Below, in pieces: positions 2,251 through 28,299 of a DNA stretch of 64,000 nt (its first letter is position 1; each line of letters opens with the position of its first letter). The stretch is from a virus (Duplodnaviria; Caudoviricetes). The notes under the pieces were generated by a model. It did no database searches, was not told the origin of the DNA, and worked only from the letters and a program-made list of their open reading frames with translations. Position numbers and translations under genes: made by a program. Where the stretch lies: the IMG/VR virus record IMGVR_UViG_3300028833_000068, positions 1 to 64,000 of that record; one strand, given 5' to 3'.

Positions 2251-2607
2251 TTAAGCACTTAAAATTACTTCCCAGTCCTCATCAACTTCATTAACTTCTT
2301 CTACTTCCTCTTCGCAATCTGAATCGGTAATTGTTGCTAGATTATTGATAACCTTCTTTGTTCCAACCGCAACAGCATACAATCCACCAACTCCTCTTAA
2401 CTTAATTCGTCTATCACAAGTATATCCTTCAACAACTCCACTTGCCCAACACTTCTCACCAATTTGATTGAGATAACAAAAAGTAATGCCATCACCATCA
2501 ATTGCTTCATATTCCTTGGTTACAGTATTATATAATCTCTTATCCTTAATAACCAAACATCTCTCAACTATTTGGATTACCTTGGAGTTGTCAATTTCAA
2601 TAAACAT
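2251..2607 (-). CDS. hypothetical protein, acidic C-terminus
   Basis: ORF track. Confidence 0.7.
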   Translation of the reverse strand: MFIEIDNSKVIQIVERCLVIKDKRLYNTVTKEYEAIDGDGITFCYLNQIGEKCWASGVVEGYTCDRRIKLRGVGGLYAVAVGTKKVINNLATITDSDCEEEVEEVNEVDEDWEVILSA

Positions 2608-2631
2608 AACAATAATAGTTTTAAAAGTTTG

Positions 2632-2705
2632 TACACCCAGAGGGACTCAAACCCCCAATCTGATGGTTCGTGGCCACCTATTCTATTCAGTTGAACTATG
2701 GGTGC
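2632..2705 (-). tRNA. tRNA-Arg(ACG)
   Basis: GCACCCA/TGGGTGT, GGTGG CC-ACG-AA CCATC; C33; A19/U56. Confidence 0.9.
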
Positions 2706-2711
2706 AAGAAA

Positions 2712-2850
2712 GGAAGCGTAGGTTTATTATGACTATTTTCCTCTACATGGAGAACTGTTACTATTCTTCGCAGTAAAACGCATGTGGTACTTAGCCCTTT
2801 GCCTAGTTTCAGAGTAACATAAATTATTAATCCAACTGCTGTACGCTTCC
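2712..2850 (-). ncRNA. ACAGCA-stem element 1 (structured, non-tRNA cargo)
   Basis: GGAAGCGT-ACAGCAG...ACGCTTCC terminal stem. Confidence 0.7.
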
Positions 2851-2895
2851 GCTAAGAGTTCTATTTGAATTATGAAAAACACACTCAAATTAAAA

Positions 2896-3045
2896 AGGAA
2901 CGACCAATTTTATGTCTTGGCTCGACATTCGCTCCTAAGAGCATAAGCAAGTGCCTCGCAAATATGATTTAACGCTTCTCTTGCTTTCATTTACTGAATC
3001 TAATACAAATGTTTTAAAATAAAGTAAATGTTGCTGTACGTTCCT
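2896..3045 (-). ncRNA. ACAGCA-stem element 2
   Basis: AGGAACG-T-ACAGCAA...CGTTCCT terminal stem; internal CATTTACT/AGTAAATG stem. Confidence 0.7.
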
Positions 3046-3175
3046 ACTGATGCAGCTAGGCGCAACTGGGCTTCCTAGATACACCTTGTGATACCGCTTT
3101 AAACCTCGTGAGCCATTGTTAATGCGCACACGCTCGACTTCCACGAGTATTTACGTCTTTGGTTTATTGCGGTTG

Positions 3176-3249
3176 TGATGAGGGAGGGACTCGAACCCTC
3201 AACCTACAGCTTAGAAGGCTGTTGCTCTGTCCAATTGAGCTACCCCACC
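3176..3249 (-). tRNA. tRNA-Arg(TCT)
   Basis: Canonical cloverleaf, ACAGC CT-TCT-AA GCTGT. Confidence 0.95.
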
Positions 3250-3250
3250 A

Positions 3251-3406
3251 TTATTTCAACGTTTTATCTTTCTTCTCGTCATAGTCATCCCATAGGAATG
3301 GTTCTTTTTCATCAACAATTGGTGCGTGTTTGATTTCATATAGGAATATAGAAATTCCTAATCCCATCATAATGCCAAGTACAATTGCAATAATTTTAAG
3401 AATCAT
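3251..3406 (-). CDS. small single-pass membrane protein (51 aa)
   Basis: Hand-translated MILKIIAIVLGIMMGLGISIFLYEIKHAP...; below the ORF-track cutoff. Confidence 0.6.
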   Translation of the reverse strand: MILKIIAIVLGIMMGLGISIFLYEIKHAPIVDEKEPFLWDDYDEKKDKTLK

Positions 3407-3409
3407 AAC

Positions 3410-3562
3410 TTATTGTTTTTTAAATTCCTTTTCAATTTCTCCATCAAATACCTTTCTATTGTATTCATGAGACTTTTTTTCTTTGGAATTAATCTTACCA
3501 ATCAGTACAATAATGACACCTAGTAAGAAACATATTATCATAAACAATATTAACCTTCCCAT
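3410..3562 (-). CDS. small single-pass membrane protein (50 aa)
   Basis: Hand-translated MGRLILFMIICFLLGVIIVLIGKINSK...; directly downstream of a promoter motif. Confidence 0.55.
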   Translation of the reverse strand: MGRLILFMIICFLLGVIIVLIGKINSKEKKSHEYNRKVFDGEIEKEFKKQ

Positions 3563-3630
3563 AATGCAAATATACCAAAAAATTTTTTAATAACCAAATT
3601 TATTAAGACTTTTTAAGAAAATAATTTGTG

Positions 3631-3718
3631 TGCCCTAGGTAGGACTCAAACCTACACGCTACTATTATTTCGCACTAGATTCTAATTCTAGGATGTCTAT
3701 CAATTCCACCACTAGGGC
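3631..3718 (-). tRNA. tRNA-Leu(TAG)
   Basis: GCCCTAG/CTAGGGC, A73, CTAGA AT-TAG-AA TCTAG, long variable region. Confidence 0.9.
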
Positions 3719-3724
3719 ATTTTC

Positions 3725-3875
3725 GGAAACATTTAATATTCTAATTGCCGTGTTTAGCCACTCCACCACCACATGTTTAATGATTAAGTTGTCATGTGGG
3801 TAGGATTCGAACCTACGAAACCGTTACGGTTAGCAATTCCCTTTTGAACATTTTTATCAATTGCTGTACGTTTCC
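3725..3875 (-). ncRNA. ACAGCA-stem element 3: circularly permuted type-II tRNA-like (YrlA-like)
   Basis: GGAAACGT-ACAGCAA...ATGTTTCC; order is V arm, T arm (GTAGG TTCGAAT CCTAC), CCACATG-linker-CATGTGG, D arm. Confidence 0.85.
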
Positions 3876-3878
3876 TTA

Positions 3879-3960
3879 TGGTAGTGAAGGGGGGACTTGA
3901 ACCCCCATACACCAATTACGGCTTTAACGACTGTATATAAGACAGGACCGATACATCACT
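3879..3960 (-). tRNA. non-canonical tRNA-Ile(TAT)-like, D arm displaced, CCA encoded
   Basis: AGTGATG/CTTCACT-A-CCA, CTGT CT-TAT-AT ACAG, GGGGG TTCAAGT CCCCC; no normal D hairpin. Confidence 0.75.
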
Positions 3961-4168
3961 AGTTTAAAATATTGTTATTCCAATATGGATAATTCTTCTT
4001 TTCAGATTCTGGTGTATCAATAAGTTCATACCTTGCTCCGCAATAAGGACAATGTGCGTTTGTAACCATTGCATCATCGTCTTCTGAAAGTTCTTCCCCA
4101 TTAATTTCGCTTAACATGAAATTTGATTCAAGAATCAAATCATGTTTACATCGCATACATTTTTCCAT
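3959..4168 (-). CDS. small zinc-ribbon protein
   Basis: CxxC...CPYCG. Confidence 0.75.
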   Translation of the reverse strand: MEKCMRCKHDLILESNFMLSEINGEELSEDDDAMVTNAHCPYCGARYELIDTPESEKKNYPYWNNNILN

Positions 4169-4189
4169 ATTGTTAAGTTTTAATTTTAA

Positions 4190-4211
4190 GGGGAACTACG
4201 AAGAGTTCCCC
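4190..4211 (-). terminator. hairpin / putative terminator
   Basis: GGGGAACT-N6-AGTTCCCC after the membrane-protein gene. Confidence 0.55.
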
Positions 4212-4220
4212 ATTTTATTT

Positions 4221-4550
4221 TTATTCGGTTTTCTTTGGTAGGAATATTGGCAAGTTATCGATGAAATTCTTAATGAAAGGAATATCATAGATACCATTAC
4301 TTGCAAGTCCCACTACTGCACAAAGGCAAATCAATGCTAGCCATACTGGTTCTCCAATACATGTAATCAAGCCAAGGAAATAACCTCCTACGGTTAGTGC
4401 AGAACCTGTAATCCATGCGACAAGCTGTGGCCAAAATCCTTCTGTAATGTTAAATTTTCCGTTAATTGCTCCTGCAATCGTAACAGTCAATGAAGCAAGA
4501 ATTGGTGCAAAATACCAAAATGCCTCAGTAAATAATGCTGTTGTAATCAT
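4221..4550 (-). CDS. small multi-pass membrane protein, holin-like
   Basis: About 3 hydrophobic segments, GLASNGIYD motif, basic C-terminus. Confidence 0.6.
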   Translation of the reverse strand: MITTALFTEAFWYFAPILASLTVTIAGAINGKFNITEGFWPQLVAWITGSALTVGGYFLGLITCIGEPVWLALICLCAVVGLASNGIYDIPFIKNFIDNLPIFLPKKTE

Positions 4551-4591
4551 AAATTAGGTTTTTAGTTTTAGTTATTTTAAAAAGTATTTTG

Positions 4592-4663
4592 AGACGATGA
4601 CCAGAATCGAACTGGCGTCCTTTGCATGGCAAGCAAACGCACTAGCCACTGTGCTACACCGTC
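4592..4663 (-). tRNA. tRNA-Gly(GCC)
   Basis: GACGGTG/CATCGTC, U73, TTTGC TT-GCC-AT GCAAA. Confidence 0.9.
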
Positions 4664-4724
4664 AATTAATATCTCTTCCTATTATCCTTTAATGTGTGTC
4701 GAAACACTAATTATTTTCTAAAAG

Positions 4725-6372: not shown

Positions 6373-6388
6373 AAATTCTATAAAAAAC

Positions 6389-6491
6389 GGATGCTCTTTT
6401 TGTTTGCTAAACCACTAAGCGACTTTGCCAAACGGCAAGGGTTGGAATCGAACCAACGTAGAAACAGAAGTTTCCATTGCTGTAAGCATCC
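6389..6491 (-). ncRNA. ACAGCA-stem element 4: YrlA-like T-acceptor-D module
   Basis: GGATGCTT-ACAGCAA...GAGCATCC; GTTGG TTCGATT CCAAC, CCTTGCC-GTTT-GGCAAAG, GCTTAGTGGTTTAGC. Confidence 0.85.
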
Positions 6492-7305: not shown

Positions 7306-7424
7306 GGAAACATCTATCCACTTAGCTATCACGCCAATCTTGGTAGCGTGAGTTGGACTTGAACCAACGACCTTAAAATCCCGAATTTTATACTATATCA
7401 TTTTTTAACTTGCTGTGTGTTTCC
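7306..7424 (-). ncRNA. ACAGCA-stem element 5: circularly permuted tRNA-Pro(CGG)-like
   Basis: GGAAACAC-ACAGCAA...ATGTTTCC; TAAAA TT-CGG-GA TTTTA, AGGTC, T arm, TCACGCT-A-CCA, linker, GGCGTGA, D arm. Confidence 0.85.
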
Positions 7425-7478: not shown

Positions 7479-8423
7479 TTATTTTTCGTTTATGTCTATT
7501 TTTGCAATAAGTGGATAATGGTCTGATGATGTTATATTAGTATCAAAAGAACATTCTTTCAATGACAATTGATATTTTGACTTATCATTATTAACATAGA
7601 ACAACTTATCACAATCTGAATGATTTGTTGGGATTGCTTCTTGAATATTTAATCCATTTATATTATTAATGGCATTAATCAAATTATCTTGAATGTTTGT
7701 TTTATCCCATTCATACTTATCGTAAGTATTTGTGTCACCAAATATGATAATTGGGTTATATGATTTGGCTTTATCTATATATTCCACCAATTGTTTTAAC
7801 TGTGATTCTCTTGCTTCCAAATCTCCAGATATATTTGGACATTTTTCTGCATCATAAAAATCAGCATCCATGTGTAACATATACACATCCAATGGAATTT
7901 CGTTATCTATAACGGTAGTATAATATCTAAATCCTTTATGAGTTAATGCATCATTAGCATGCGTAAAGTACCCATAGCACTTTTTCCATCGTTTAATGTC
8001 TTCTGTTTTTTGAATGACATCAATTCTATTTTTCTTAGCAATGATATTAATACCATCACATTTAAATCTAGGCAATGGAAAATAAGTTAGCCATTCTGTA
8101 TTTGAAAATAACTTTGAAAGGTCAAATCCTCCTGTATATTTGCCACAAGAATAATTATCTTTCAATGATGACATTAATTCATCATGATAATTAAAGTCTT
8201 CTTGAACTCCTATAATATCTGCCTCAGAGGATGATAGATATTTGCTTATGTTTTCAATATCTTCTTTCTTATTTCCATTGTCATTAATTGAAATAATTGT
8301 TGTTCCTTTAAATAACTTATATATCCAAGCAATTGGTTTCAATATCCAAGGAAGGTCATTTAAATCCAATTCACTTGGCAAACCATCAATATTATAGGTT
8401 ATTAGCTTAATTGTTTTATCCAT
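7479..8423 (-). CDS. endonuclease/exonuclease/phosphatase (EEP) family protein
   Basis: ITYNIDG, DIIGVQED, GDTN, SDHYP motifs. Confidence 0.9.
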   Translation of the reverse strand: MDKTIKLITYNIDGLPSELDLNDLPWILKPIAWIYKLFKGTTIISINDNGNKKEDIENISKYLSSSEADIIGVQEDFNYHDELMSSLKDNYSCGKYTGGFDLSKLFSNTEWLTYFPLPRFKCDGINIIAKKNRIDVIQKTEDIKRWKKCYGYFTHANDALTHKGFRYYTTVIDNEIPLDVYMLHMDADFYDAEKCPNISGDLEARESQLKQLVEYIDKAKSYNPIIIFGDTNTYDKYEWDKTNIQDNLINAINNINGLNIQEAIPTNHSDCDKLFYVNNDKSKYQLSLKECSFDTNITSSDHYPLIAKIDINEK

Positions 8424-8501: not shown

Positions 8502-8551
8502 GGGAAATTTTTCGTAACTTTTTCATAACAAATTACAGTATTAATCATTTG

Positions 8552-8635
8552 GGTGATATGTTGGATTCGAACCAACGTGAGCTTTCGCTACCAGGACCAC
8601 AATCTGGCGTCATCGGCCTCTAGACGAATATCACC
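8552..8635 (-). tRNA. tRNA-His(GTG) with G-1 and long variable arm
   Basis: G-GTGATAT/ATATCAC-C73, CCAGA TT-GTG-GT CCTGG, AGC-GAAA-GCT variable hairpin. Confidence 0.9.
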
Positions 8636-8929: not shown

Positions 8930-9045
8930 GGAATCATTAAAACTAAGGTGGTGCAGGATTCGAACCTACGTTCTCTTGGTAAAATCCAAGGCTTTAGTCC
9001 ACTAAGCTAACCGTCTGAAGTTTATATCAATTGCTGTTAGATTCC
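8930..9045 (-). ncRNA. ACAGCA-stem element 6: whole tRNA body (UUU-like loop) inside the scaffold
   Basis: GGAATCTA-ACAGCAA...ATGATTCC; GCTT AGTGGACTA AAGC, CTTGG ATTTTA CCAAG, GTAGG TTCGAAT CCTGC. Confidence 0.8.
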
Positions 9046-9325: not shown

Positions 9326-9419
9326 TGGGAAGGGAGGGATTCGAACCCCCCTACTGCGAGACCAATACGCCCATTTGTTAATGCAGGACTGATTTACAGT
9401 CAGTTGACGTTACCTTCCC
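9326..9419 (-). tRNA. non-canonical tRNA-Tyr(GTA), D arm displaced
   Basis: GGGAAGG/CCTTCCC-A, ACTGA CT-GTA-AA TCAGT, GGGGG TTCGAAT CCCTC; only 8 nt between acceptor and anticodon arm. Confidence 0.8.
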
Positions 9420-10824: not shown

Positions 10825-10886
10825 GGGAACATTTTTAACTTATCCAAATTTGCAGTTCGATGTTAAATACATTGCTGTATGTTCCC
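10825..10886 (-). ncRNA. ACAGCA-stem element 7: minimal scaffold presenting a Cys(GCA) anticodon arm
   Basis: GGGAACAT-ACAGCAA...ATGTTCCC; TTAAC/GTTAA; TCGAA CT-GCA-AA TTTGG. Confidence 0.8.
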
Positions 10887-10992
10887 ACTATTTGATAGCA
10901 GGGTTGCTAGATTTCACTCAAATGACTTTACACATTAAACGTATCTGCATGCACTGTCCGTTCTTGAGACTGTCCTAGTACTTTCTGCTTTG

Positions 10993-11083
10993 TATTGGGT
11001 AGGGGATTCGAACCCCTGAAGAGTCTCGTAAAACTCTTACAAGATTGAAAGTCTTGCTACTTAAACCACTCGTACAACCCAAC
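10993..11083 (-). tRNA. tRNA with Glu(TTC) anticodon on a type-II (long variable arm) body
   Basis: GTTGGGT/ACCCAAT-A, CAAGA CT-TTC-AA TCTTG, AAGAGTTT-TACG-AGACTCTT variable stem. Confidence 0.85.
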
Positions 11084-16323: not shown

Positions 16324-17241
16324 TTACCCAATTATATTTCCACTCTTATCACAAATTAATCCACGATGTATATCAATCACAATTGGACGATGCTTACGTT
16401 TAAACTCAGAACGTACAGAACGCATAATCACAGCTTCTACGGTTTCATAACCATGTTTTTCACATAGTGCCTTAAATACTCCATAATCAAAATAATTATG
16501 AAGCACATGCTCCTTAATTCTAGAATCAAGCCCAACCCAAGCTTGTAGGATTTCGTCAACGTCATCATAGGTCTTTCCAGGGGCTATCTGAGCCAAATCG
16601 CCTCCAGCCTTAACACCATTACCATCAGTTGGAATCAATGCAATAGACTGTTCAAGAGCCTTTGAATCCTTAAAATGATTTTCCTTTAGGTAACGAGCAA
16701 GGTCATAAACCTCATGCTTCCATAAACCGCCAATTGGATTTAATTCTCCTTCATCACCTCCAGCAATGGTCCAAAATCCCAAAAAGCATTCTGTCAAATT
16801 ATCGGTATCAATCACAATACCATTAGTGATACTAGCTAAATTGTGTAAGAAATTACCTCTTAGCCTAGCCTTAATATTACCTTGTGAAACATTGGTACTA
16901 ATTAAACCAAATGAATTAAAAACATTTTCTACATTAACAAATAACTCTTGTAGATTTATTTCTTTAAAATCATTACAAAACTCCATCCCAACAAGTTTGG
17001 CTGTTGATATTTCAACTTCCTCATTTGTTGAACAAGGAAGACTAGCACCAATTAGTGGAATACTCGTCTTATCATATACCATCTTACAAATAGCTGCGCA
17101 TAAAGTTGAATCAATTCCTCCTGAAATTCCAAGAACTTGTGTTTTAATGTGATTTTTAACCAAATATTCAGCAACGCCATTAACAATGTTATCAAGAACC
17201 TTCTTATAATCAAGAGGGCTTGTTCTATAAGTCTCAACCAT
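16324..17241 (-). CDS. nadE: NH3-dependent NAD+ synthetase
   Basis: LGISGGIDST, GNIKARLR, TDNLTE..GFWT..GD, PIGGLWKHEV, SEFKR. Confidence 0.93.
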   Translation of the reverse strand: MVETYRTSPLDYKKVLDNIVNGVAEYLVKNHIKTQVLGISGGIDSTLCAAICKMVYDKTSIPLIGASLPCSTNEEVEISTAKLVGMEFCNDFKEINLQELFVNVENVFNSFGLISTNVSQGNIKARLRGNFLHNLASITNGIVIDTDNLTECFLGFWTIAGGDEGELNPIGGLWKHEVYDLARYLKENHFKDSKALEQSIALIPTDGNGVKAGGDLAQIAPGKTYDDVDEILQAWVGLDSRIKEHVLHNYFDYGVFKALCEKHGYETVEAVIMRSVRSEFKRKHRPIVIDIHRGLICDKSGNIIG

Positions 17242-18373
17242 AACAATTTAAAATTTCGTTTAACATTTCTTTTTTATCTTCAAAAACAAAATATGGATAA
17301 TCTATACCCAAATCACTATAATATAACAATTTTATACCATTTTTTTTACATAATACATTCTTAATTTTATCATTTTTAATAACATATTTAAAGCCATATT
17401 TTCCCTTTTCAAAATGAGAAACTTTTTTAAAATGTTGTATTCCTTGACATTCAATTGCTACTTTATATTTTGGCAAATAAAAATCTAAACTAAATTTTCC
17501 TAACCATTCTAAATCTTTTTTAGACGCAACATGAATATACTCTATATTATTATCATCAAATAATTTTTTTATCGCTAATTCCAAATGAGACATTCTACAA
17601 TGAGGACACCCAGCGCCACACAAATGAGAATTCGCTGTTTGCTCAAAATCACCATGAATAGGACATGTTATTGTAATTAAATTAGCTTGTATTGTGTATT
17701 TTGATTTTGAATAATCATACTTATCACCATGTACTTCTTTAGCTTTTTCTATAAAATCTTTTGTACTTAATTTTCCAACATTTGCACAATATGCGCATTT
17801 TGCGCCATTTATGTGCCTTGATGGGTGTTGCCAGAATTCGCCATGCTTTGGGCAGATAATACAAACTCTTCCCTTTTCGTCACGATGTTCTAAATCAACT
17901 TTAGAATAATCATACTTATCACCATGCGTTTCTTTGGCTCTATTTAAAAATTCATGCATTGTTAATGGCACTCCTCCATTACATTTTGGACAACCCCTAT
18001 GATTGGTTTTATGAATATGATTGGCTGGTGTTTGCCAAAATTCGCCATGCGTAGGACAGATTATGCATACTTTAGTATTAGCATTCACATATTCTACCTT
18101 AGAATAGTCATATTTATCGCCATGTATTTCTTTAGCCTTACTTATAAATTCTTCGGAAGTCAATAGAACTCCTCCATTACATTTTGGACAACCCCTATGA
18201 TTGGTTTTATGAATATGATTGGCTGGTGTTTGCCAAAATTCGCCATGCGTAGGACAGATTATGCATACTTTAGTTCTGTTATTGGTGTATTCTACTTTTG
18301 AATAATCATACTTATCACCATGTACTTCTTTAGCTTTTTCTATAAAATCTTTTGTTGTTATTTTTTTAGGCAT
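17234..18373 (-). CDS. homing endonuclease: DUF723-like zinc repeats plus C-terminal PD-(D/E)XK/Vsr-like domain
   Basis: 4 x (HGDKYDYSK...ICPxHGxFxQ...H...C.xC) repeats; LDFYLPKYKVAIECQGIQH. Confidence 0.85.
   Translation of the reverse strand: MPKKITTKDFIEKAKEVHGDKYDYSKVEYTNNRTKVCIICPTHGEFWQTPANHIHKTNHRGCPKCNGGVLLTSEEFISKAKEIHGDKYDYSKVEYVNANTKVCIICPTHGEFWQTPANHIHKTNHRGCPKCNGGVPLTMHEFLNRAKETHGDKYDYSKVDLEHRDEKGRVCIICPKHGEFWQHPSRHINGAKCAYCANVGKLSTKDFIEKAKEVHGDKYDYSKSKYTIQANLITITCPIHGDFEQTANSHLCGAGCPHCRMSHLELAIKKLFDDNNIEYIHVASKKDLEWLGKFSLDFYLPKYKVAIECQGIQHFKKVSHFEKGKYGFKYVIKNDKIKNVLCKKNGIKLLYYSDLGIDYPYFVFEDKKEMLNEILNCYG
17973..18274. repeat. about 104-bp identical intragenic duplication, period 198 bp
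   Basis: 17973-18076 matches 18171-18274. Confidence 0.85.
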
Positions 18374-20508: not shown

Positions 20509-21810
20509 CTATTTCGCAATTACTAGCGTATGGTCTTTCTTACCCTTGGTTAGCAACAGATACTTACCTTGAATCAGATAAGGTGTTGTAACAGTTTCCT
20601 TCTCACTTGTAGGCTTAATCTTATTGATGGAGAAACCATTGCTCTTAATCAACTTACGAGCCTCAGACTTTGAAGACACCTTATCGTGCATTGCAGCAAG
20701 GTCAACCACAGACACACCGCTAACAAAGGAATCCTTTGATACCTCAACCTTTGCAACACCATCCATAGCTGCAAGAAGAGCACTCTCATCGATTGTTGCC
20801 AACTGCTCGGTAGTTCCTTTACCAAAGAGAATTTCAGTAGCTTCAATTGCCTTGTTGTACTCTTCCTCAGAGTGTACAAGACAAGTCATATACTTTGCCA
20901 ACTCCTTCTGCAAATAACGTGCTGATGGGTTCTCACGATGCTTCTCAATCATTGCGTTAATCTCATCAAGTGGAATGAGAGTAAATTTCTTAATGAATGC
21001 CTCAGAATCTTCGTCAGATTGGTTCAACCAAAATTGGAAAAATTCATAAGGACTTGTTTTTTCAGCACTAAGCCAAATGTTTTTGCCATTTGAACTCTTA
21101 CCAAATTTAGTGCCATCTGCACGAGTAACCAATGGCCAAGTCAACGCACAAGCATCAGTCTTTCCAAGAGCTTTACGAATAAATTCCAAACCAATAGTAC
21201 AGTTACCATACTGATCTTGTCCGCCAATTTCACATCTGCACCCATATTCCTTATACAAATGCAAGAAATCATAACCTTGGGCTGTCATATAAAGGAATTC
21301 ACAAAGTGATATTCCTTCACCCTCACGATTAAGACGTTTCTTTACTGACTCCTTCGCCATCATATAATTGACAGTAGTAAGTTTAGCGACATCCTTCATG
21401 TAGTCAGAAAGATTCATCTTACCCATCCACTCATCATTATTCAACATAATGGCTTTATTCTCAGCATTGCTGTTGAAATCAATTAATTTGCTTACTTGTG
21501 CCTTAATACACTCTGAATTGTGAAGAACTTGTTCATCAGTAATCAATGGACGAGAAGTGTCACGGAATGACGGGTCACCAATTTTAGCAGTAAAACCGCC
21601 TACCAATACAATTGGACGATGACCGTATTTCTGCAATAACTTAGCAGTAGTAAACGCCAATAAGTGTCCAACATGAAGTGAATCTCCTGTAGGATCTGTA
21701 CCAACATAGAATGTAGTTGGCTTACTAAAAACCTCATACAAATCACCACTGACACTAGACATCAGTCCTCTTTCCTTTAGTTCTTCAATTAATTTCTTAG
21801 AATCAATCAT
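20509..21810 (-). CDS. tyrS: tyrosyl-tRNA synthetase
   Basis: YVGTDPTGDSLHVGH (HIGH), QGYDF, GGQDQYGN, KFGKS, C-terminal S4-like domain. Confidence 0.97.
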   Translation of the reverse strand: MIDSKKLIEELKERGLMSSVSGDLYEVFSKPTTFYVGTDPTGDSLHVGHLLAFTTAKLLQKYGHRPIVLVGGFTAKIGDPSFRDTSRPLITDEQVLHNSECIKAQVSKLIDFNSNAENKAIMLNNDEWMGKMNLSDYMKDVAKLTTVNYMMAKESVKKRLNREGEGISLCEFLYMTAQGYDFLHLYKEYGCRCEIGGQDQYGNCTIGLEFIRKALGKTDACALTWPLVTRADGTKFGKSSNGKNIWLSAEKTSPYEFFQFWLNQSDEDSEAFIKKFTLIPLDEINAMIEKHRENPSARYLQKELAKYMTCLVHSEEEYNKAIEATEILFGKGTTEQLATIDESALLAAMDGVAKVEVSKDSFVSGVSVVDLAAMHDKVSSKSEARKLIKSNGFSINKIKPTSEKETVTTPYLIQGKYLLLTKGKKDHTLVIAK

Positions 21811-22135: not shown

Positions 22136-23815
22136 TTACAACTTAATGTAAGACAGAATTTCTTGGTTAAGTGCCTTGGCTACAAGTTCCTCTGCGGTAA
22201 GATTACGTACCTTTCCAGTTACCTCATCAATAACCTTCGACTCTTCTCCACATAGGGTTGTTATAATGCTTCCGTCAAATCCCGAAAGGAACGTACATCC
22301 ACTCTCGAAGGCAGTACCCTCAAAGTGGGTTACACCGTGTCTTGCAACACAATCCCACCAAATGAATTTCATATTGTCCACAAACTCACTTGGGAATACA
22401 GTCTTCAACGCCCTCTTTGAGTACTCGAAGTTTGTTTCAGTTTGGCGATAGTTGCCACCATACCAACTACGATTAGACGGGTTAAACTCCATATCGGATA
22501 CAACCAGTATGGTCTTTGGATACTGCTCCAATGGAATTTCTGGATGTGCCTTTCTAATCTTGATGATTTCATCAACTGCTGATTGGAAATTAGTTCCACC
22601 GCAGCCTACGCTAGGAAGGTTCATAATTCTATCACAGAATGACTCGCCAACCATATCGTGAGGTGTTGACACATTGTCGAACATAATAACCTTATTATGG
22701 AAAGGACCAGTATTAAGGTCAGCGAAGAACAATGCAAGCGATGATGCAATATCAGAACAATAGATGTCCTTCAATCCTCTAACAGCTTGGTTCATTGAAC
22801 CGCTAGTATCAAGACAGCACCATACATTCTCTGTAATCTTACCACCATCACGAGCCTTATCAACAAGACCCTTGAACTGTGCATCAAGAGTGTGCTTCAA
22901 CTCTATGGGAATATTTGCATTGCCACCACGATAGTAACCATACCTACTACCACGAGCCTCACGTAGGCGCTTTGCAAGTTCAAAGACATAGCCAGTGAAC
23001 TTAGCAACTGGCTGCTGCAATATCCACTCTGTATAGTTCTCTCTCAAATCGTGGTTTGAAAGGAACTTGCTTGACACAAGAAGGTTAAGAGCACGTCCTG
23101 GAATGTGATTCCAATTCAAGTCCTTATAGTTCCTTGAGCAGATAAGCTTCTGGAAATCGTGAGCCTTACCGCTAGCCTTCATCTTATTGTACTCCTTGTA
23201 GGAGATACCCATTTGACTAGCGAATGCCTTTGCGAGGTCATTGGTAATCTTTGTCCAATCAGTATTGCACTTGCTCTGAGACTTAATACGAGGCATGTAC
23301 TTCTTAATCAAGTCAACATGGGTGTCGCAAAGTAGACCTTGTGCGATTACCTCAAAGAGAGCCTTTTGGTTAATACAATTGGTATTCTCCTTGATATCGT
23401 AGAACATAATTGTCCACAAGTCCTTCCAAGAGCCAACAAGTGGCAATGCCCAAATGTTGTTATAGAACGCCTCTGGATGCTCCAATGCAACCCAAAGCAA
23501 TCTCTTGAATGACTCGTCACGAGCACCTTGTCCATTCTGAACCTTATCAGTCTCGTTGTCAGCATTCACCTTGACCTTACGAGTAACCATACGAAGGTAG
23601 AATGGGAAACGAAGAGCTGCCTCTGCATTCTCATTCCAAATATTTGCTTGTTCAGCAAACACCTCTCCAATGGCACGACCACGAAAGTTTCCAGCCTTAC
23701 CGAATTGGTCTACGATTGCAGACCCACTAGAAATTAGTGTTGTTGCCCCGTTTTCTGTCAGTGTTGTTGACTTAAAGTTTGCTGCGTTGATAAATGCGTT
23801 TGCCTTTGTGTTCAT
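22136..23815 (-). CDS. DUF2828-type (TROVE/Ro60-like) protein with C-terminal vWA domain
   Basis: TENGA N-terminal motif, GQGARD, GSWKDL, KYMPR, MIDAS DTSGSM, GGTNFQ, VVSDMEF. Confidence 0.8.
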   Translation of the reverse strand: MNTKANAFINAANFKSTTLTENGATTLISSGSAIVDQFGKAGNFRGRAIGEVFAEQANIWNENAEAALRFPFYLRMVTRKVKVNADNETDKVQNGQGARDESFKRLLWVALEHPEAFYNNIWALPLVGSWKDLWTIMFYDIKENTNCINQKALFEVIAQGLLCDTHVDLIKKYMPRIKSQSKCNTDWTKITNDLAKAFASQMGISYKEYNKMKASGKAHDFQKLICSRNYKDLNWNHIPGRALNLLVSSKFLSNHDLRENYTEWILQQPVAKFTGYVFELAKRLREARGSRYGYYRGGNANIPIELKHTLDAQFKGLVDKARDGGKITENVWCCLDTSGSMNQAVRGLKDIYCSDIASSLALFFADLNTGPFHNKVIMFDNVSTPHDMVGESFCDRIMNLPSVGCGGTNFQSAVDEIIKIRKAHPEIPLEQYPKTILVVSDMEFNPSNRSWYGGNYRQTETNFEYSKRALKTVFPSEFVDNMKFIWWDCVARHGVTHFEGTAFESGCTFLSGFDGSIITTLCGEESKVIDEVTGKVRNLTAEELVAKALNQEILSYIKL

Positions 23816-24421: not shown

Positions 24422-25324
24422 TCAAATTAGTTTACCAATTCTAGATATATATTCTTTTTTCATTTCGTCCAATGCTTCTCCCTCAAGTTGTCTAACTCTT
24501 TCTGCTGTTAGTCCAAGTTTTACCCCAATTTCCTCTCGTTCGTATTCTCTTTTGAGACCATTGTCATCATAGAGACCAAAACGCATCTTAATGATTTCTT
24601 TCTTCCTAGGTGAAAGTTTATACAATAATGAAGATACCAACTGCTTATTGAATTCATCGTTTTCCTTATTGATATATTCATTATGTGAAGCACTCACACG
24701 GTTATAATCAGCCATATCGCTTCCTTGATAATTTTCGTCATCATTTGCTTCGCCCAAGTCAATACTTGCATAATGAGTAGCAATCAAATCAGTTTTATCA
24801 TTGATGTCCTTCTTATACTTTGTGTTGACAATCTCAAGGAGTTCTTCTGGGGTTGGAGTTCTTTCAAACTCTTGCAAAAAGTCATTTGTTGCCTTTGAAA
24901 TAACATGGAATGTCTTTGAAAGGTTTGTCTTTCGTACCAATTGATTGTCTCCATTGTTATAGTTATTGATTGCACGTAAAATGTACCACATTGCATAACT
25001 AGCAAACTTAGTACCAACTGTTATGTCAAAACTATCAATTGCTTCATTTAAGCCAAAATTTGCCTCATTCACATAATCCATCAGTGTATCAGTTGTTGCC
25101 CATTTCTTGGCTGCTGCTACTACCATGCGCTGATTACATATCATGATATATTCCTTTGCAAATTCTCTCTCTTCCTTCGTTCCGTGATGAAGCTGATTGA
25201 ACCATGCGACTTCTTCTTCCCTTGTGAATGTAGGAAAATCCTTAATATCATTATAGAAACGAGTGGTGTTTTCTGAGCGGTCTACAAGACCAGTCTCTGC
25301 TTTAAGATTAATTACAAGTCCCAT
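24422..25324 (-). CDS. sigma-70 family RNA polymerase sigma factor
   Basis: NQRMVVAAAKK, GLNEAIDSFD..GTKFASYAMWYI, region 4 LGLTAERVRQLE. Confidence 0.93.
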   Translation of the reverse strand: MGLVINLKAETGLVDRSENTTRFYNDIKDFPTFTREEEVAWFNQLHHGTKEEREFAKEYIMICNQRMVVAAAKKWATTDTLMDYVNEANFGLNEAIDSFDITVGTKFASYAMWYILRAINNYNNGDNQLVRKTNLSKTFHVISKATNDFLQEFERTPTPEELLEIVNTKYKKDINDKTDLIATHYASIDLGEANDDENYQGSDMADYNRVSASHNEYINKENDEFNKQLVSSLLYKLSPRKKEIIKMRFGLYDDNGLKREYEREEIGVKLGLTAERVRQLEGEALDEMKKEYISRIGKLI

Positions 25325-25342: not shown

Positions 25343-25882
25343 TTATTGTTTAACATTGTTTTTCTTTTTCAAAATAACGCTTGTCTTATTGCCATCATCC
25401 CTTGGCGCTGCTTCTGGAACAGCAACGTCTTCTAACAACACAATAAACTCAAGAATTGATTTCTTATTTTCCTCCCTTCTAGAGAGTTCTCTTCCTTTCA
25501 TGGAAAGAATGACTCTTACCTTACTTCCATCCTCAAGGAACTTTCTAGCACTATTTGCCTTTGTCTCCAAATCGTGTTTAGCAATATTCACACTAAGTTG
25601 GATTTCCTTTAATGGTTTGGCAACTTGCTTGTTTTTCTTTGCAGACTTCTTAAGTTCATAAATCATTTTTTCATAATTGCAGATACGGATGATAGGGGTA
25701 TCAAGTTTGCCTTGAATCTCCACCAAGTCTAAATCAATACTTTCAGCAATTTTTCTTGCCTCTGACATTGGTACAATCTTGCTTTCAATGTCATTACCAA
25801 CGATTCTAACATTTCCATTGAATCGAATTTCATCGTTCACTCTGAACTTTGAAGAGAAATCATCTTTCTTCTGTTTTGCCAT
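25343..25882 (-). CDS. infC: translation initiation factor IF-3
   Basis: RVNDEIR, LDLVEI, KEIQLSVNIAKHDLETK, KVRV...KGRE. Confidence 0.95.
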   Translation of the reverse strand: MAKQKKDDFSSKFRVNDEIRFNGNVRIVGNDIESKIVPMSEARKIAESIDLDLVEIQGKLDTPIIRICNYEKMIYELKKSAKKNKQVAKPLKEIQLSVNIAKHDLETKANSARKFLEDGSKVRVILSMKGRELSRREENKKSILEFIVLLEDVAVPEAAPRDDGNKTSVILKKKNNVKQ

Positions 25883-26614: not shown

Positions 26615-27220
26615 TTAGTATCTTCTATGCCCATTCTTCTTAAATCTTTCTTCTGCTTCAGCACGTCTTTTCTTAACCATCTCACGATATGCCTCTCTAT
26701 CAACTTTCTTAACTTCTTGTTCCTTAATATATATTTCAATCAATTCTTCATCTCTAGATTTCTGAAAATAGTCATATATGGTTAAATCAAGGTCAGTTAT
26801 ACAATTGTTGAATATCTCTAGAATTTTATCCCTATCTCCATTACCGTCAAATCTACTTGCCCCTAGTAATGTACAAGCAACTCTCTTGCCTTTATATAAA
26901 ATATTAACAAGTTTCAAACATTTTTCAAGAGATTCATATGAAAGATAGTCTTTTTGTAAATCTGGTCTAAAATTACCCTTCACTATGAAGCACAAGCAGA
27001 ATGTTGGTTCATTATCTGAAGTACATTCCAACACAGTCCCCAATTTGTTGGAATCTCCATATTTAGTTTCAAGATTTTTATTATAAACATACGGATAATT
27101 AAGCATTACTTTCAGTTGAATACCTTGCCCCATACTATGGTACAAATTAGTACCAACTAATGTGACATCATATTCACTAAAATGGTCATATAAATCTACA
27201 TCTTTTATTACATTAATCAT
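26615..27220 (-). CDS. macro-domain (ADP-ribose) protein
   Basis: DL..., GTN...MGQGI, YESLEKCL, LGASRFDGNGD resemble Poa1p-like macrodomains. Confidence 0.65.
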   Translation of the reverse strand: MINVIKDVDLYDHFSEYDVTLVGTNLYHSMGQGIQLKVMLNYPYVYNKNLETKYGDSNKLGTVLECTSDNEPTFCLCFIVKGNFRPDLQKDYLSYESLEKCLKLVNILYKGKRVACTLLGASRFDGNGDRDKILEIFNNCITDLDLTIYDYFQKSRDEELIEIYIKEQEVKKVDREAYREMVKKRRAEAEERFKKNGHRRY

Positions 27221-28299
27221 TATTTGAAATGTTCTTGCTGCTTAAGCTGCTTCAACAACTCTCGCTCAGTGTCATTAAGATTCTTTGGTGTAATGATATT
27301 TACAATACCAATCATATTTCCAGCATTACCAATGCTTGTACCATATCTTGGTAAACCATAACCCTTGAATCTAAATATCTGCCCACTATTAGTTCCTTGA
27401 GGAATCTTGGTCTTGATGGTCTTACCACTTAAAGTGCCAACCTCAACCTCACAACCCAATATTGCATCTATCGCTGAAACCTCTAAGTTACATACCAAAT
27501 CTCTACCTTGAACCTCAAATATTGGGTGTTCCTTAAATTCAATAACAACAATTAAACTGCCATTCTGTCCTTTTCCATGAGGAGCTGCATTACCAAGTCC
27601 ACTATATTCTATCTGCATACCATTTTCAACACCCCTAGGTATCGTAAACTGGACCTCAGAATTTGAATTTTGAACAACACCATAACCATTGCAATGAGGA
27701 CAAGGATTCTCAATTACATAACCCTTACCACCACAAGTTGGGCAAGTTTGCTGCATGGACATAAAACCATGCTGAGAAAATGCCATTCCAGTACCGCCAC
27801 AAGTCTTACAAGTCTTCTTACGACTGTTGGTGGTCATACCACTTCCATTACAATGCTTACAAGGCTCATTCCTCTTTATCTTAATCTTCTTGGTGCAACC
27901 ATTTAATACCTCCTCAAGAGTCAATTCCACCTTAATTCTAATGCTGCTCCCCCTCTGAGGCTGCTGTGGCTGAGAATTGAAACCAAAACCACCCATGCCA
28001 AAATGACGCAATATGTCATCCATATTCATCCCGCCAAAATTAGGTCCTGAAGAATGGAACTCAAACGTGGACTTTGGATTGTCATATTCCTTACGCTTAT
28101 CAGGGTCTTTTAACGTCTCATATGCTTCTGAAGCTTCTTTGAACCTTTCCTCTGCCTTCTTCTTTTCAGCTTCGGACTTTCCTTGCTGTTTATCTGGATG
28201 TGCATCCAATGCAATCTTTCGATACGCCTTCTTAATCTCTTCGTCACTAGCATCCTTCTTGACACCAAGAATCTTGTAATAATCTTTCCTTTCAGCCAT
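27220..28299 (-). CDS. dnaJ: DnaJ chaperone
   Basis: J domain with HPD, G/F region, 4 x CxxCxGxG. Confidence 0.97.
   Translation of the reverse strand: MAERKDYYKILGVKKDASDEEIKKAYRKIALDAHPDKQQGKSEAEKKKAEERFKEASEAYETLKDPDKRKEYDNPKSTFEFHSSGPNFGGMNMDDILRHFGMGGFGFNSQPQQPQRGSSIRIKVELTLEEVLNGCTKKIKIKRNEPCKHCNGSGMTTNSRKKTCKTCGGTGMAFSQHGFMSMQQTCPTCGGKGYVIENPCPHCNGYGVVQNSNSEVQFTIPRGVENGMQIEYSGLGNAAPHGKGQNGSLIVVIEFKEHPIFEVQGRDLVCNLEVSAIDAILGCEVEVGTLSGKTIKTKIPQGTNSGQIFRFKGYGLPRYGTSIGNAGNMIGIVNIITPKNLNDTERELLKQLKQQEHFK

Follow-up and report, generated by a model that had tools for sequence, protein, structure and literature searches.

What kind of gene occupies an interval in which the 3′ half of a tRNA stands ahead of its 5′ half and no anticodon loop can be read? 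Such an interval lies at positions 3725–3875, on the minus strand, of the DNA analyzed here, the first 64 kb (hereafter the window) of a 171-kb phage record from IMG/VR (IMGVR_UViG_3300028833_000068; CheckV completeness about 53%). Our comparison of this locus with its relatives leaves little doubt that it is a small non-coding RNA gene with a conserved, structured fold, in which the body of a type-II tRNA, arranged back to front and sealed at its acceptor, is carried on a handle. As to the role of the RNA, the best explanation as a whole, which we hold with somewhat better than even confidence, is that it is a Y-RNA-like tRNA mimic that would work in the manner of the YrlA RNAs, with a Ro60-shaped protein of the DUF2828 family.

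A sealed, back-to-front tRNA body and its conservation

Read on the minus strand from 3875 down to 3725, the element runs from a terminal stem, the motif ACAGCAA and a spacer through the 3′ tRNA half, a linker and the 5′ tRNA half to a second spacer and the closing strand of the terminal stem. Its parts are listed below; conservation refers to a set of eight orthologues that is described after the list.

3868–3875 (−): terminal stem P1, 5′ strand, GGAAACGT, pairing with 3725–3732
3861–3867 (−): handle motif ACAGCAA, unpaired, an asymmetric bulge on the 5′ strand; CAGCAA is invariant in the eight orthologues
3855–3860 (−): short helix P2, 5′ strand, pairing with 3733–3738 through six pairs including one G-U; tentative
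3839–3854 (−): A-rich internal loop or spacer, whose length and sequence vary among orthologues
3833–3838 (−): anticodon-stem-like helix, 3′-half strand AATTGC, pairing with 3743–3748
3819–3831 (−): long variable (V) arm, 5-bp stem and 3-nt loop; 97% paired and recovered by RNAalifold
3800–3816 (−): T arm with the canonical loop TTCGAAT; G53-C61, T54, T55, C56 and A58 are kept
3793–3799 (−): acceptor stem, 3′ strand CCACATG, pairing with 3769–3775
3776–3792 (−): discriminator-like A and 16-nt AU-rich linker, closing the acceptor; not conserved
3769–3775 (−): acceptor stem, 5′ strand CATGTGG, pairing with 3793–3799
3750–3766 (−): D arm, 3-bp stem and 11-nt loop with A14, G18, G19 and A21; A14 and G19 are invariant
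3743–3748 (−): anticodon-stem-like helix, 5′-half strand GCAATT, pairing with 3833–3838
3725–3732 (−): terminal stem P1, 3′ strand, ATGTTTCC, pairing with the first eight bases

The dinucleotide TG separates the 5′ acceptor strand from the D stem, and a single G lies between the D arm and GCAATT. This anatomy bears out the first-pass annotation of the locus, which had described a permuted type-II tRNA with the 3′ half ahead of the 5′ half and with the anticodon loop replaced by a stem leading into the handle: each of the segments that it listed was read on the minus strand, from 3875 to 3725, in the order given. The 17-nt linker that it placed across the acceptor has this length if the discriminator-like A is counted, and the topology is YrlA-like, as it had stated.

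The orthologues were reached through the DUF2828 protein of the same phage, which led to related jumbo-phage records that were then searched with the element. The neighboring 338-aa OmpA-like open reading frame (ORF), used as a query, found no related viral loci. The resulting set comprised the window copy and seven further sequences, four of them at 69–75% identity (BLAST) and three more distant, recovered as partial BLAST or nhmmer matches. In the alignment of these eight, 91.7% of the cells of the proposed fold held standard pairs vs. 82.7% with shuffled partners (none of 500 shuffles reached the observed value), and only 36–45% were paired when the partners were slid by one to three columns. 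Double changes were seen at 13 pairs. The acceptor helix, the T stem and the D stem were paired in 100% of cells, with double changes at five of the seven pairs, at one pair and at two pairs, respectively; the V arm and P1 each reached 97%, with two doubly changed pairs and one. In the anticodon-stem-like helix 75% of cells were paired, one pair was doubly changed (U-A to C-G) and a central mismatch occurred in six of the eight sequences. At the site of P2 the orthologues form a short helix in differing registers, and the MAFFT columns were only 58% paired. Supplied with no structure, RNAalifold returned the P1, V, T, acceptor and D helices. By single-sequence folding the minimum free energy of the element was unremarkable (z = −1.9), the strand of the AATTGC region being paired there with the upstream handle. 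The alternative pairing seen in that prediction, of AGCAA in the handle with TTGCT ahead of the V arm, was rejected because the orthologues do not keep it.

The nucleotides that join the arms of a tRNA are also maintained. No sequence departs from U8, A14, G19-C56 or G26, and at the Levitt pair 15-48 (position 48 being 3817 of the window) five sequences have G-C and three have A-U. The first-pass annotation had named a lack of conserved acceptor pairing in homologues as grounds for abandoning its proposal; instead, compensatory changes keep the acceptor fully paired, and the elbow nucleotides and Levitt pair are likewise either conserved or covarying. In three orthologues the acceptor contains G-U pairs, which become C-A when read on the opposite strand. 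As such pairs are valid on this strand only, the selected molecule would be the minus-strand RNA and not a feature of the DNA. The sequence comparison thus argues for a strand-specific RNA fold that is compatible with an L shape.

We then considered the element as a tRNA. Neither ARAGORN nor the Rfam tRNA model made a call on it, as is expected for the permuted order. When the two halves were connected in silico by a placeholder loop of 7 nt, ARAGORN called a tRNA for all eight orthologues, the label Leu of these calls stemming from the placeholder loop only. The element itself has no 7-nt anticodon loop and no free, chargeable acceptor ends, and it encodes no CCA. The loop that closes the acceptor goes from about 20 nt down to 3–5 nt (three orthologues), and the acceptor strand is followed by either A or T; this shrinkage and the lack of conservation of the following base indicate that there is no selection for an acceptor end that can be opened and charged. 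Since the anticodon loop is missing, we concluded that the element is not a decoding tRNA. By eye we found no bulge-helix-bulge at its termini, which form a plain 8-bp helix and a 7-nt bulge. Among the ORFs scanned there was no above-cut-off Pfam match to a tRNA-splicing endonuclease; ORF 17234–18373 gave 23.7 bits for the Sen54 N-terminal domain, below the cut-off of 24 bits. Descent of the tRNA body from the adjacent tRNA-Leu gene was also examined and rejected, since the two resemble each other in the D and T arms only and several other tRNAs are at least as similar to the tRNA body.

A recurrent handle and a Ro60-shaped candidate partner

The handle can be described as a covarying stem of 6–8 bp that joins the ends of the RNA, with ACAGCA(A/G) unpaired directly behind it on the 5′ strand, and the element fits this description. 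Seven copies of the handle occur in the window, all on the minus strand and all within the tRNA array, while the plus strand has none.

2712–2850 (−): handle copy
2896–3045 (−): handle copy
3725–3875 (−): handle copy, the element studied here
6389–6491 (−): handle copy
7306–7424 (−): handle copy
8930–9045 (−): handle copy
10825–10886 (−): handle copy, 62 nt

Across the seven, the sequence of the stem differs with its pairing kept, the motif ACAGCA(A/G) is present in all, and P1 often precedes a T-run. A loose descriptor of the handle gave 13 matches on the minus strand vs. a mean of 2.3 in simulated sequence. As cargo, the other copies have nothing at all (10825–10886), sequence unlike tRNA, or different tRNA-like bodies. 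Unrelated viral contigs also carry handle arrays, as well as further permuted tRNA bodies set in handles; in the scan with a 14-base handle pattern chance matches predominated, and the true arrays were picked out from among them. The bare handle had no matching family in Rfam, and no description of such an RNA class was met in the literature searched on DUF2828, phage permuted tRNAs and the motif string. Most likely, the element belongs to an uncatalogued class of tRNA-mimicking, Y-like RNAs with an ACAGCAA handle.

Three of the other copies have cargo of their own kind. At 7306–7424 (−) it is a complete permuted tRNA, consisting of an anticodon arm, a T arm, an acceptor strand with A-CCA, a 5-nt linker, the 5′ acceptor strand and a D arm; near-identical copies are present in two relatives (L017 and L019). 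Unlike the element studied here, this sister might in principle yield a tRNA on opening. The cargo of 8930–9045 (−) is a tRNA-like body in unpermuted order, reported by ARAGORN as tRNA-??? with a 2-nt anticodon at 8945–9016. The interval 6381–6491 (−) holds a T arm, a hairpin-closed acceptor and a D arm, without a V arm, and at 6381–6480 it is the sole copy that nears the Rfam YrlA model (31.7 bits, E 5e-5, cut-off 69).

The protein that we propose as the partner of these RNAs is encoded in the same phage.

22136–23815 (−): DUF2828/DUF7788 protein, 559 aa, assigned by Pfam; Ro60-like predicted fold

Its AlphaFold2 model, built on 97 diverse homologues, had a mean predicted local distance difference test score of 92.5. 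The 12 best matches of the model in PDB were all full-length Ro60 proteins (Xenopus, human, Deinococcus Rsr and Thermus phage phiLo; E 7e-8 to 5e-6, TM-score about 0.5), and the later ones were isolated vWA domains alone, with E above 1e-2. At the fold level the protein is thus predicted to have the HEAT-repeat ring closed by a vWA domain with a MIDAS motif, and D336, S338 and S340 are invariant in the 97 homologues. The DUF2828 family profile also matched Ro60 sequences (E 2e-4). A single-sequence search of the protein against PDB sequences gave nothing, so that the family profile and the fold search alone made the connection, and there was no match to Pfam TROVE in the 171-kb record.

Co-occurrence pointed in the same direction. 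DUF2828 was found in three of five unrelated, incomplete contigs that bear handles vs. 0 of 14 control genomes. Furthermore, in all three contigs examined for a distant DUF2828 gene (27–32% identity), two to four handles lie downstream on the same strand: a tandem of four stands right behind the gene in one contig, a pair is found right behind it in another, and the third has two within 3.7 kb (about 3 kb off). Copies of 55–65 nt without tRNA cargo are among them. By analogy with the YrlA and Ro60 pair, the RNA of the element is probably a partner of the DUF2828 protein.

Tandem handle RNAs of 55–90 nt lie directly downstream of distant DUF2828 genes at L150:1934–2253 (+) and L151:7823–7953 (+). 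Contig L151 has the motif variant AUCAGCAA, and a gene for a MYG1-family exonuclease is located 2.5 kb upstream. In the window, the flanks of the DUF2828 gene (20509–21810, 24422–25324, 25343–25882 and 27220–28299, all on the minus strand) encode TyrRS, a sigma-70-type factor, IF3 and DnaJ, which makes this a neighborhood of translation and proteostasis rather than of RNA repair.

Known relatives, proposed action and rival explanations

YrlA RNAs contain T, closed-acceptor, D and often V stem-loops and show covariation of the Levitt pair; their genes were first found next to rsr, and in M. smegmatis cleavage of YrlA by RNase P and addition of CCA are possible (PMC4201824). The first-pass annotation had taken the long variable arm as a departure from YrlA. 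This part of it has to be given up, as a V stem-loop had been reported for many YrlA RNAs (Chen et al., 2014; PMC4201824). Its remark that no anticodon is left to cleave, read as a decoy role, is speculative. The element has the T arm, the loop-closed acceptor, the D arm and the tertiary nucleotides of a tRNA-like domain, and it shares with YrlA/Rsr (RF02553) the paired ends, the unpaired motif on the 5′ strand and the permuted tRNA mimic with these nucleotides. As in YrlA systems, the genome also encodes a Ro60-fold ring protein, and the handles adjacent to DUF2828 genes mirror the rule by which YrlA was first found beside rsr (PMC4201824). In contrast to YrlA, the handle is reused here on cargo that is not tRNA-like, the gene lies inside a tRNA array, and the protein is DUF2828/DUF7788 and not TROVE. 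The RF02553 model gave the element 14.0 bits (E 0.5; gathering cut-off 69), and in a 281-nt search the element was not listed at E ≤ 10. A regular expression for the motif GNCGAAN0-1G, which lies near the 5′ end of YrlA RNAs and is the proposed contact with Rsr, found none in the eight orthologues, which have ACAGCAA at that place. YrlA genes are located within about 4 kb of a Ro60/TROVE gene on the same strand; here the record has no TROVE match, and the DUF2828 gene lies 18 kb off. We thus concluded that the element is YrlA-like in design and is not a member of the YrlA family by sequence, motif or gene neighborhood.

Two further groups of RNAs are close to the handle. The Ro60 protein of phage phiLo binds phage Y-like RNAs, which have a 5′–3′ stem and a bulge with a CGAA motif (PMC12135203, in the part of the text searched). 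According to the same text, phiLo Yrl1 and Yrl2 (PDB 9KOP, 9L5Y) are phage stem-bulge-stem RNAs on a Ro60-type ring. In our fold search, this structure is among the top matches of the DUF2828 model. Unlike the element, the phiLo RNAs carry CGAA and lie directly upstream of a canonical TROVE gene, and a tRNA-like module is not described for them in the searched text (PMC12135203). Class I RNAs of Dictyostelium open with a 6-bp terminal stem whose first base is G; next come CCTTACAGCAA (which ends in ACAGCAA) and a variable interior (PMC7919456, supplementary sequences). Their handle design (Kjellin et al., 2021) equals that of the present handle, a likeness confirmed at the motif level only. 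Unlike the element, they are eukaryotic, measure 42–65 nt and have no tRNA-like cargo, and the only binder reported for them is the RRM protein Rnp1A, with no reported connection to DUF2828 proteins.

Permuted order itself has a precedent in the tRNA genes of Cyanidioschyzon merolae, which, like the element, have the 3′ half upstream, an acceptor linker and paired termini. These genes keep the whole anticodon loop and mature via a circular intermediate into working tRNAs. The element, on the other hand, has no anticodon loop and a sealed acceptor, and neither a whole tRNA with its anticodon loop nor bulge-helix-bulge termini of the C. merolae type were found in it.

On the reading that we prefer, the gene would be transcribed together with the minus-strand tRNA array and yield a small, stable non-coding RNA about 150 nt long. 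The layout of the locus suggests that this RNA is freed from the operon transcript by tRNA end-processing enzymes, and an RNase P cut at the downstream tRNA would trim its 3′ side. The RNA would then consist of two modules. In the first, the 5′ and 3′ ends would form an 8-bp helix that presents the unpaired ACAGCAA, an arrangement apparently used on six other RNAs of the array; by analogy with YrlA and Ro60 (Rsr), this handle may dock on the DUF2828 ring. The second, a circularly permuted type-II tRNA body, is predicted to adopt the L shape, could be neither charged nor used in decoding, and may expose its elbow and variable arm for contact with tRNA-binding enzymes or tRNA-directed nucleases. 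The ring protein could thereby be tied to tRNA surveillance, repair or protection during infection. That the RNA acts by way of a recruited tRNA-binding factor is suggested by the same analogy and is plausible, though we give it somewhat less than an even chance. In sheep-rumen sequencing runs (three RNA-library runs and one DNA run), compared as contigs with positions 2600–4700, none of the RNA contigs extended over 3665–3877, which allows no inference on expression. One 320-nt RNA-library contig joins 3876–3934 to a relative's version of the handle and may represent DNA carry-over.

Several observations weigh against this reading. The anticodon-stem-like helix, through which the tRNA body would be joined to the handle, is the weakest of the helices and imperfect in most orthologues. 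The three sequences with an A-U Levitt pair are close relatives, so that they amount to one evolutionary event. In this phage 18 kb separate the element from the DUF2828 gene, which is on the same strand but lacks an adjacent handle (none lies upstream), and the link between the two therefore rests on co-occurrence elsewhere. This last point would be accounted for if the sealed body acted as a stand-alone decoy that soaks up a tRNA-directed host factor, such as an anticodon nuclease or other tRNA-cleaving toxin, a modification enzyme or LeuRS, with the handle serving as a clamp or processing signal and no Ro60-like partner involved. Phage tRNA arrays are usually read as compensation for host tRNA attack, and both this setting and the strong structural selection on the tRNA body agree with a decoy; the T-run often seen after P1 could then be a terminator-like or protective end. 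We nevertheless regard it as unlikely. The same handle bears non-tRNA cargo or none at all, as in the 62-nt copy at 10825–10886 and the 55–65-nt copies by DUF2828 genes, and a clamp would leave unexplained why unpaired ACAGCAA is invariant across distant lineages and why handles adjoin DUF2828 genes.

The two remaining explanations assign the element to the tRNA operon itself. Since tRNA genes stand on both sides of it within 3–13 nt at most orthologous loci, and T-runs lie behind P1 in four relatives, it could be viewed as a processing or termination spacer whose tRNA look is the relic of a duplicated tRNA. A relic, however, would not keep four tRNA helices by compensatory changes, nor the Levitt pair, and the handle is also found outside tRNA arrays, by DUF2828 genes; a spacer is thus highly unlikely. 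Still less credible is a true permuted tRNA gene in the style of C. merolae, the transcript of which would be circularized through the paired termini, after which RNase P and 3′ processing would open the acceptor to give a working tRNA, e.g., tRNA-Leu. It would explain the order of 3′ half, linker and 5′ half, the paired termini and the A that comes behind the acceptor strand of the window copy; RNase P can cleave the YrlA of M. smegmatis, which can also receive CCA (PMC4201824), and the sister at 7306–7424 has an internal CCA and an anticodon arm. Yet after such joining the site of the anticodon loop would be taken up by P1, ACAGCAA, P2 and the internal loop, over 60 nt of handle and spacer sequence in all. 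The linker of 3–5 nt in three orthologues and the following A or T show that opening of the acceptor is not selected, and the lack of a bulge-helix-bulge by eye and of an encoded CCA, together with the Sen54 match below its cut-off, also argues against such maturation. We consider this explanation extremely improbable.

To our knowledge, tRNA-mimicking Y RNAs have so far been known only as YrlA with canonical Ro60. The element would extend the YrlA design to a different handle and to an apparently different Ro60-shaped family, DUF2828, to which no function has been assigned. Genes of this kind in a phage tRNA array escape both tRNA finders and Rfam. With one RNA, one protein and one motif, all in a well-covarying locus, the system is a testable case that offers a route to the function of DUF2828 and to the role of a sealed tRNA body in infection. 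The match between the handle and the Class I motif also yields a concrete hypothesis for the Dictyostelium Class I RNAs, the mechanism of which has been open since 2004. A much broader proposal, which we put forward as a speculation and rather doubt in its full extent, is that the stem and ACAGCAA serve for docking in an ancient, so far undescribed ribonucleoprotein of the Ro60-like DUF2828 proteins, which jumbo phages, giant viruses and cells would have in common. Its eukaryotic members would be the Dictyostelium Class I RNAs, and in phages the ribonucleoprotein would display interchangeable tRNA bodies, the present one being a sealed, leucine-type bait for tRNA-directed host defenses or an adaptor for tRNA repair or quality control.

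The phage and its tRNA array

The related records are complete jumbo phages of 295–413 kb, and DNA of the phage occurs in sequencing runs from sheep, goat and cattle gut or rumen. The coding content of the window includes TyrRS, IF3, a sigma factor and DnaJ. The tRNA array covers 1.1–11.3 kb on the minus strand, with 14 ARAGORN calls and several atypical tRNA-like genes, and the element is closely flanked on either side.

3630–3718 (−): type-II tRNA-Leu(TAG), called by ARAGORN and Rfam; begins 6 nt past the element
3879–3960 (−): tRNA-like gene without a recognizable D arm, with an encoded CCA; ends 3 nt ahead of the element

The gap from the element to the following tRNA gene is 6–13 nt at six of the eight orthologous loci. 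The gene at 3879–3960 has a UAU-type anticodon loop and a long variable region; its score with the Rfam tRNA model (29.4 bits) is at the threshold, and ARAGORN makes no call on it. The same upstream neighbor also stands beside the element in one relative, L143.

Within the tRNA and handle array, a 314-aa ORF at 7479–8423 (−) resembles the endonuclease/exonuclease/phosphatase family, with weak Pfam matches just under the cut-offs. Several tRNA calls, for amino acids whose tRNAs normally have short variable loops (Cys, His and Glu), are 83–94 nt long (1283–1366, 8551–8634 and 10992–11083, all on the minus strand), and the tRNA at 9326–9419 (−) was called by Rfam only. These long calls and 9326–9419 may contain extra arms or inserts.
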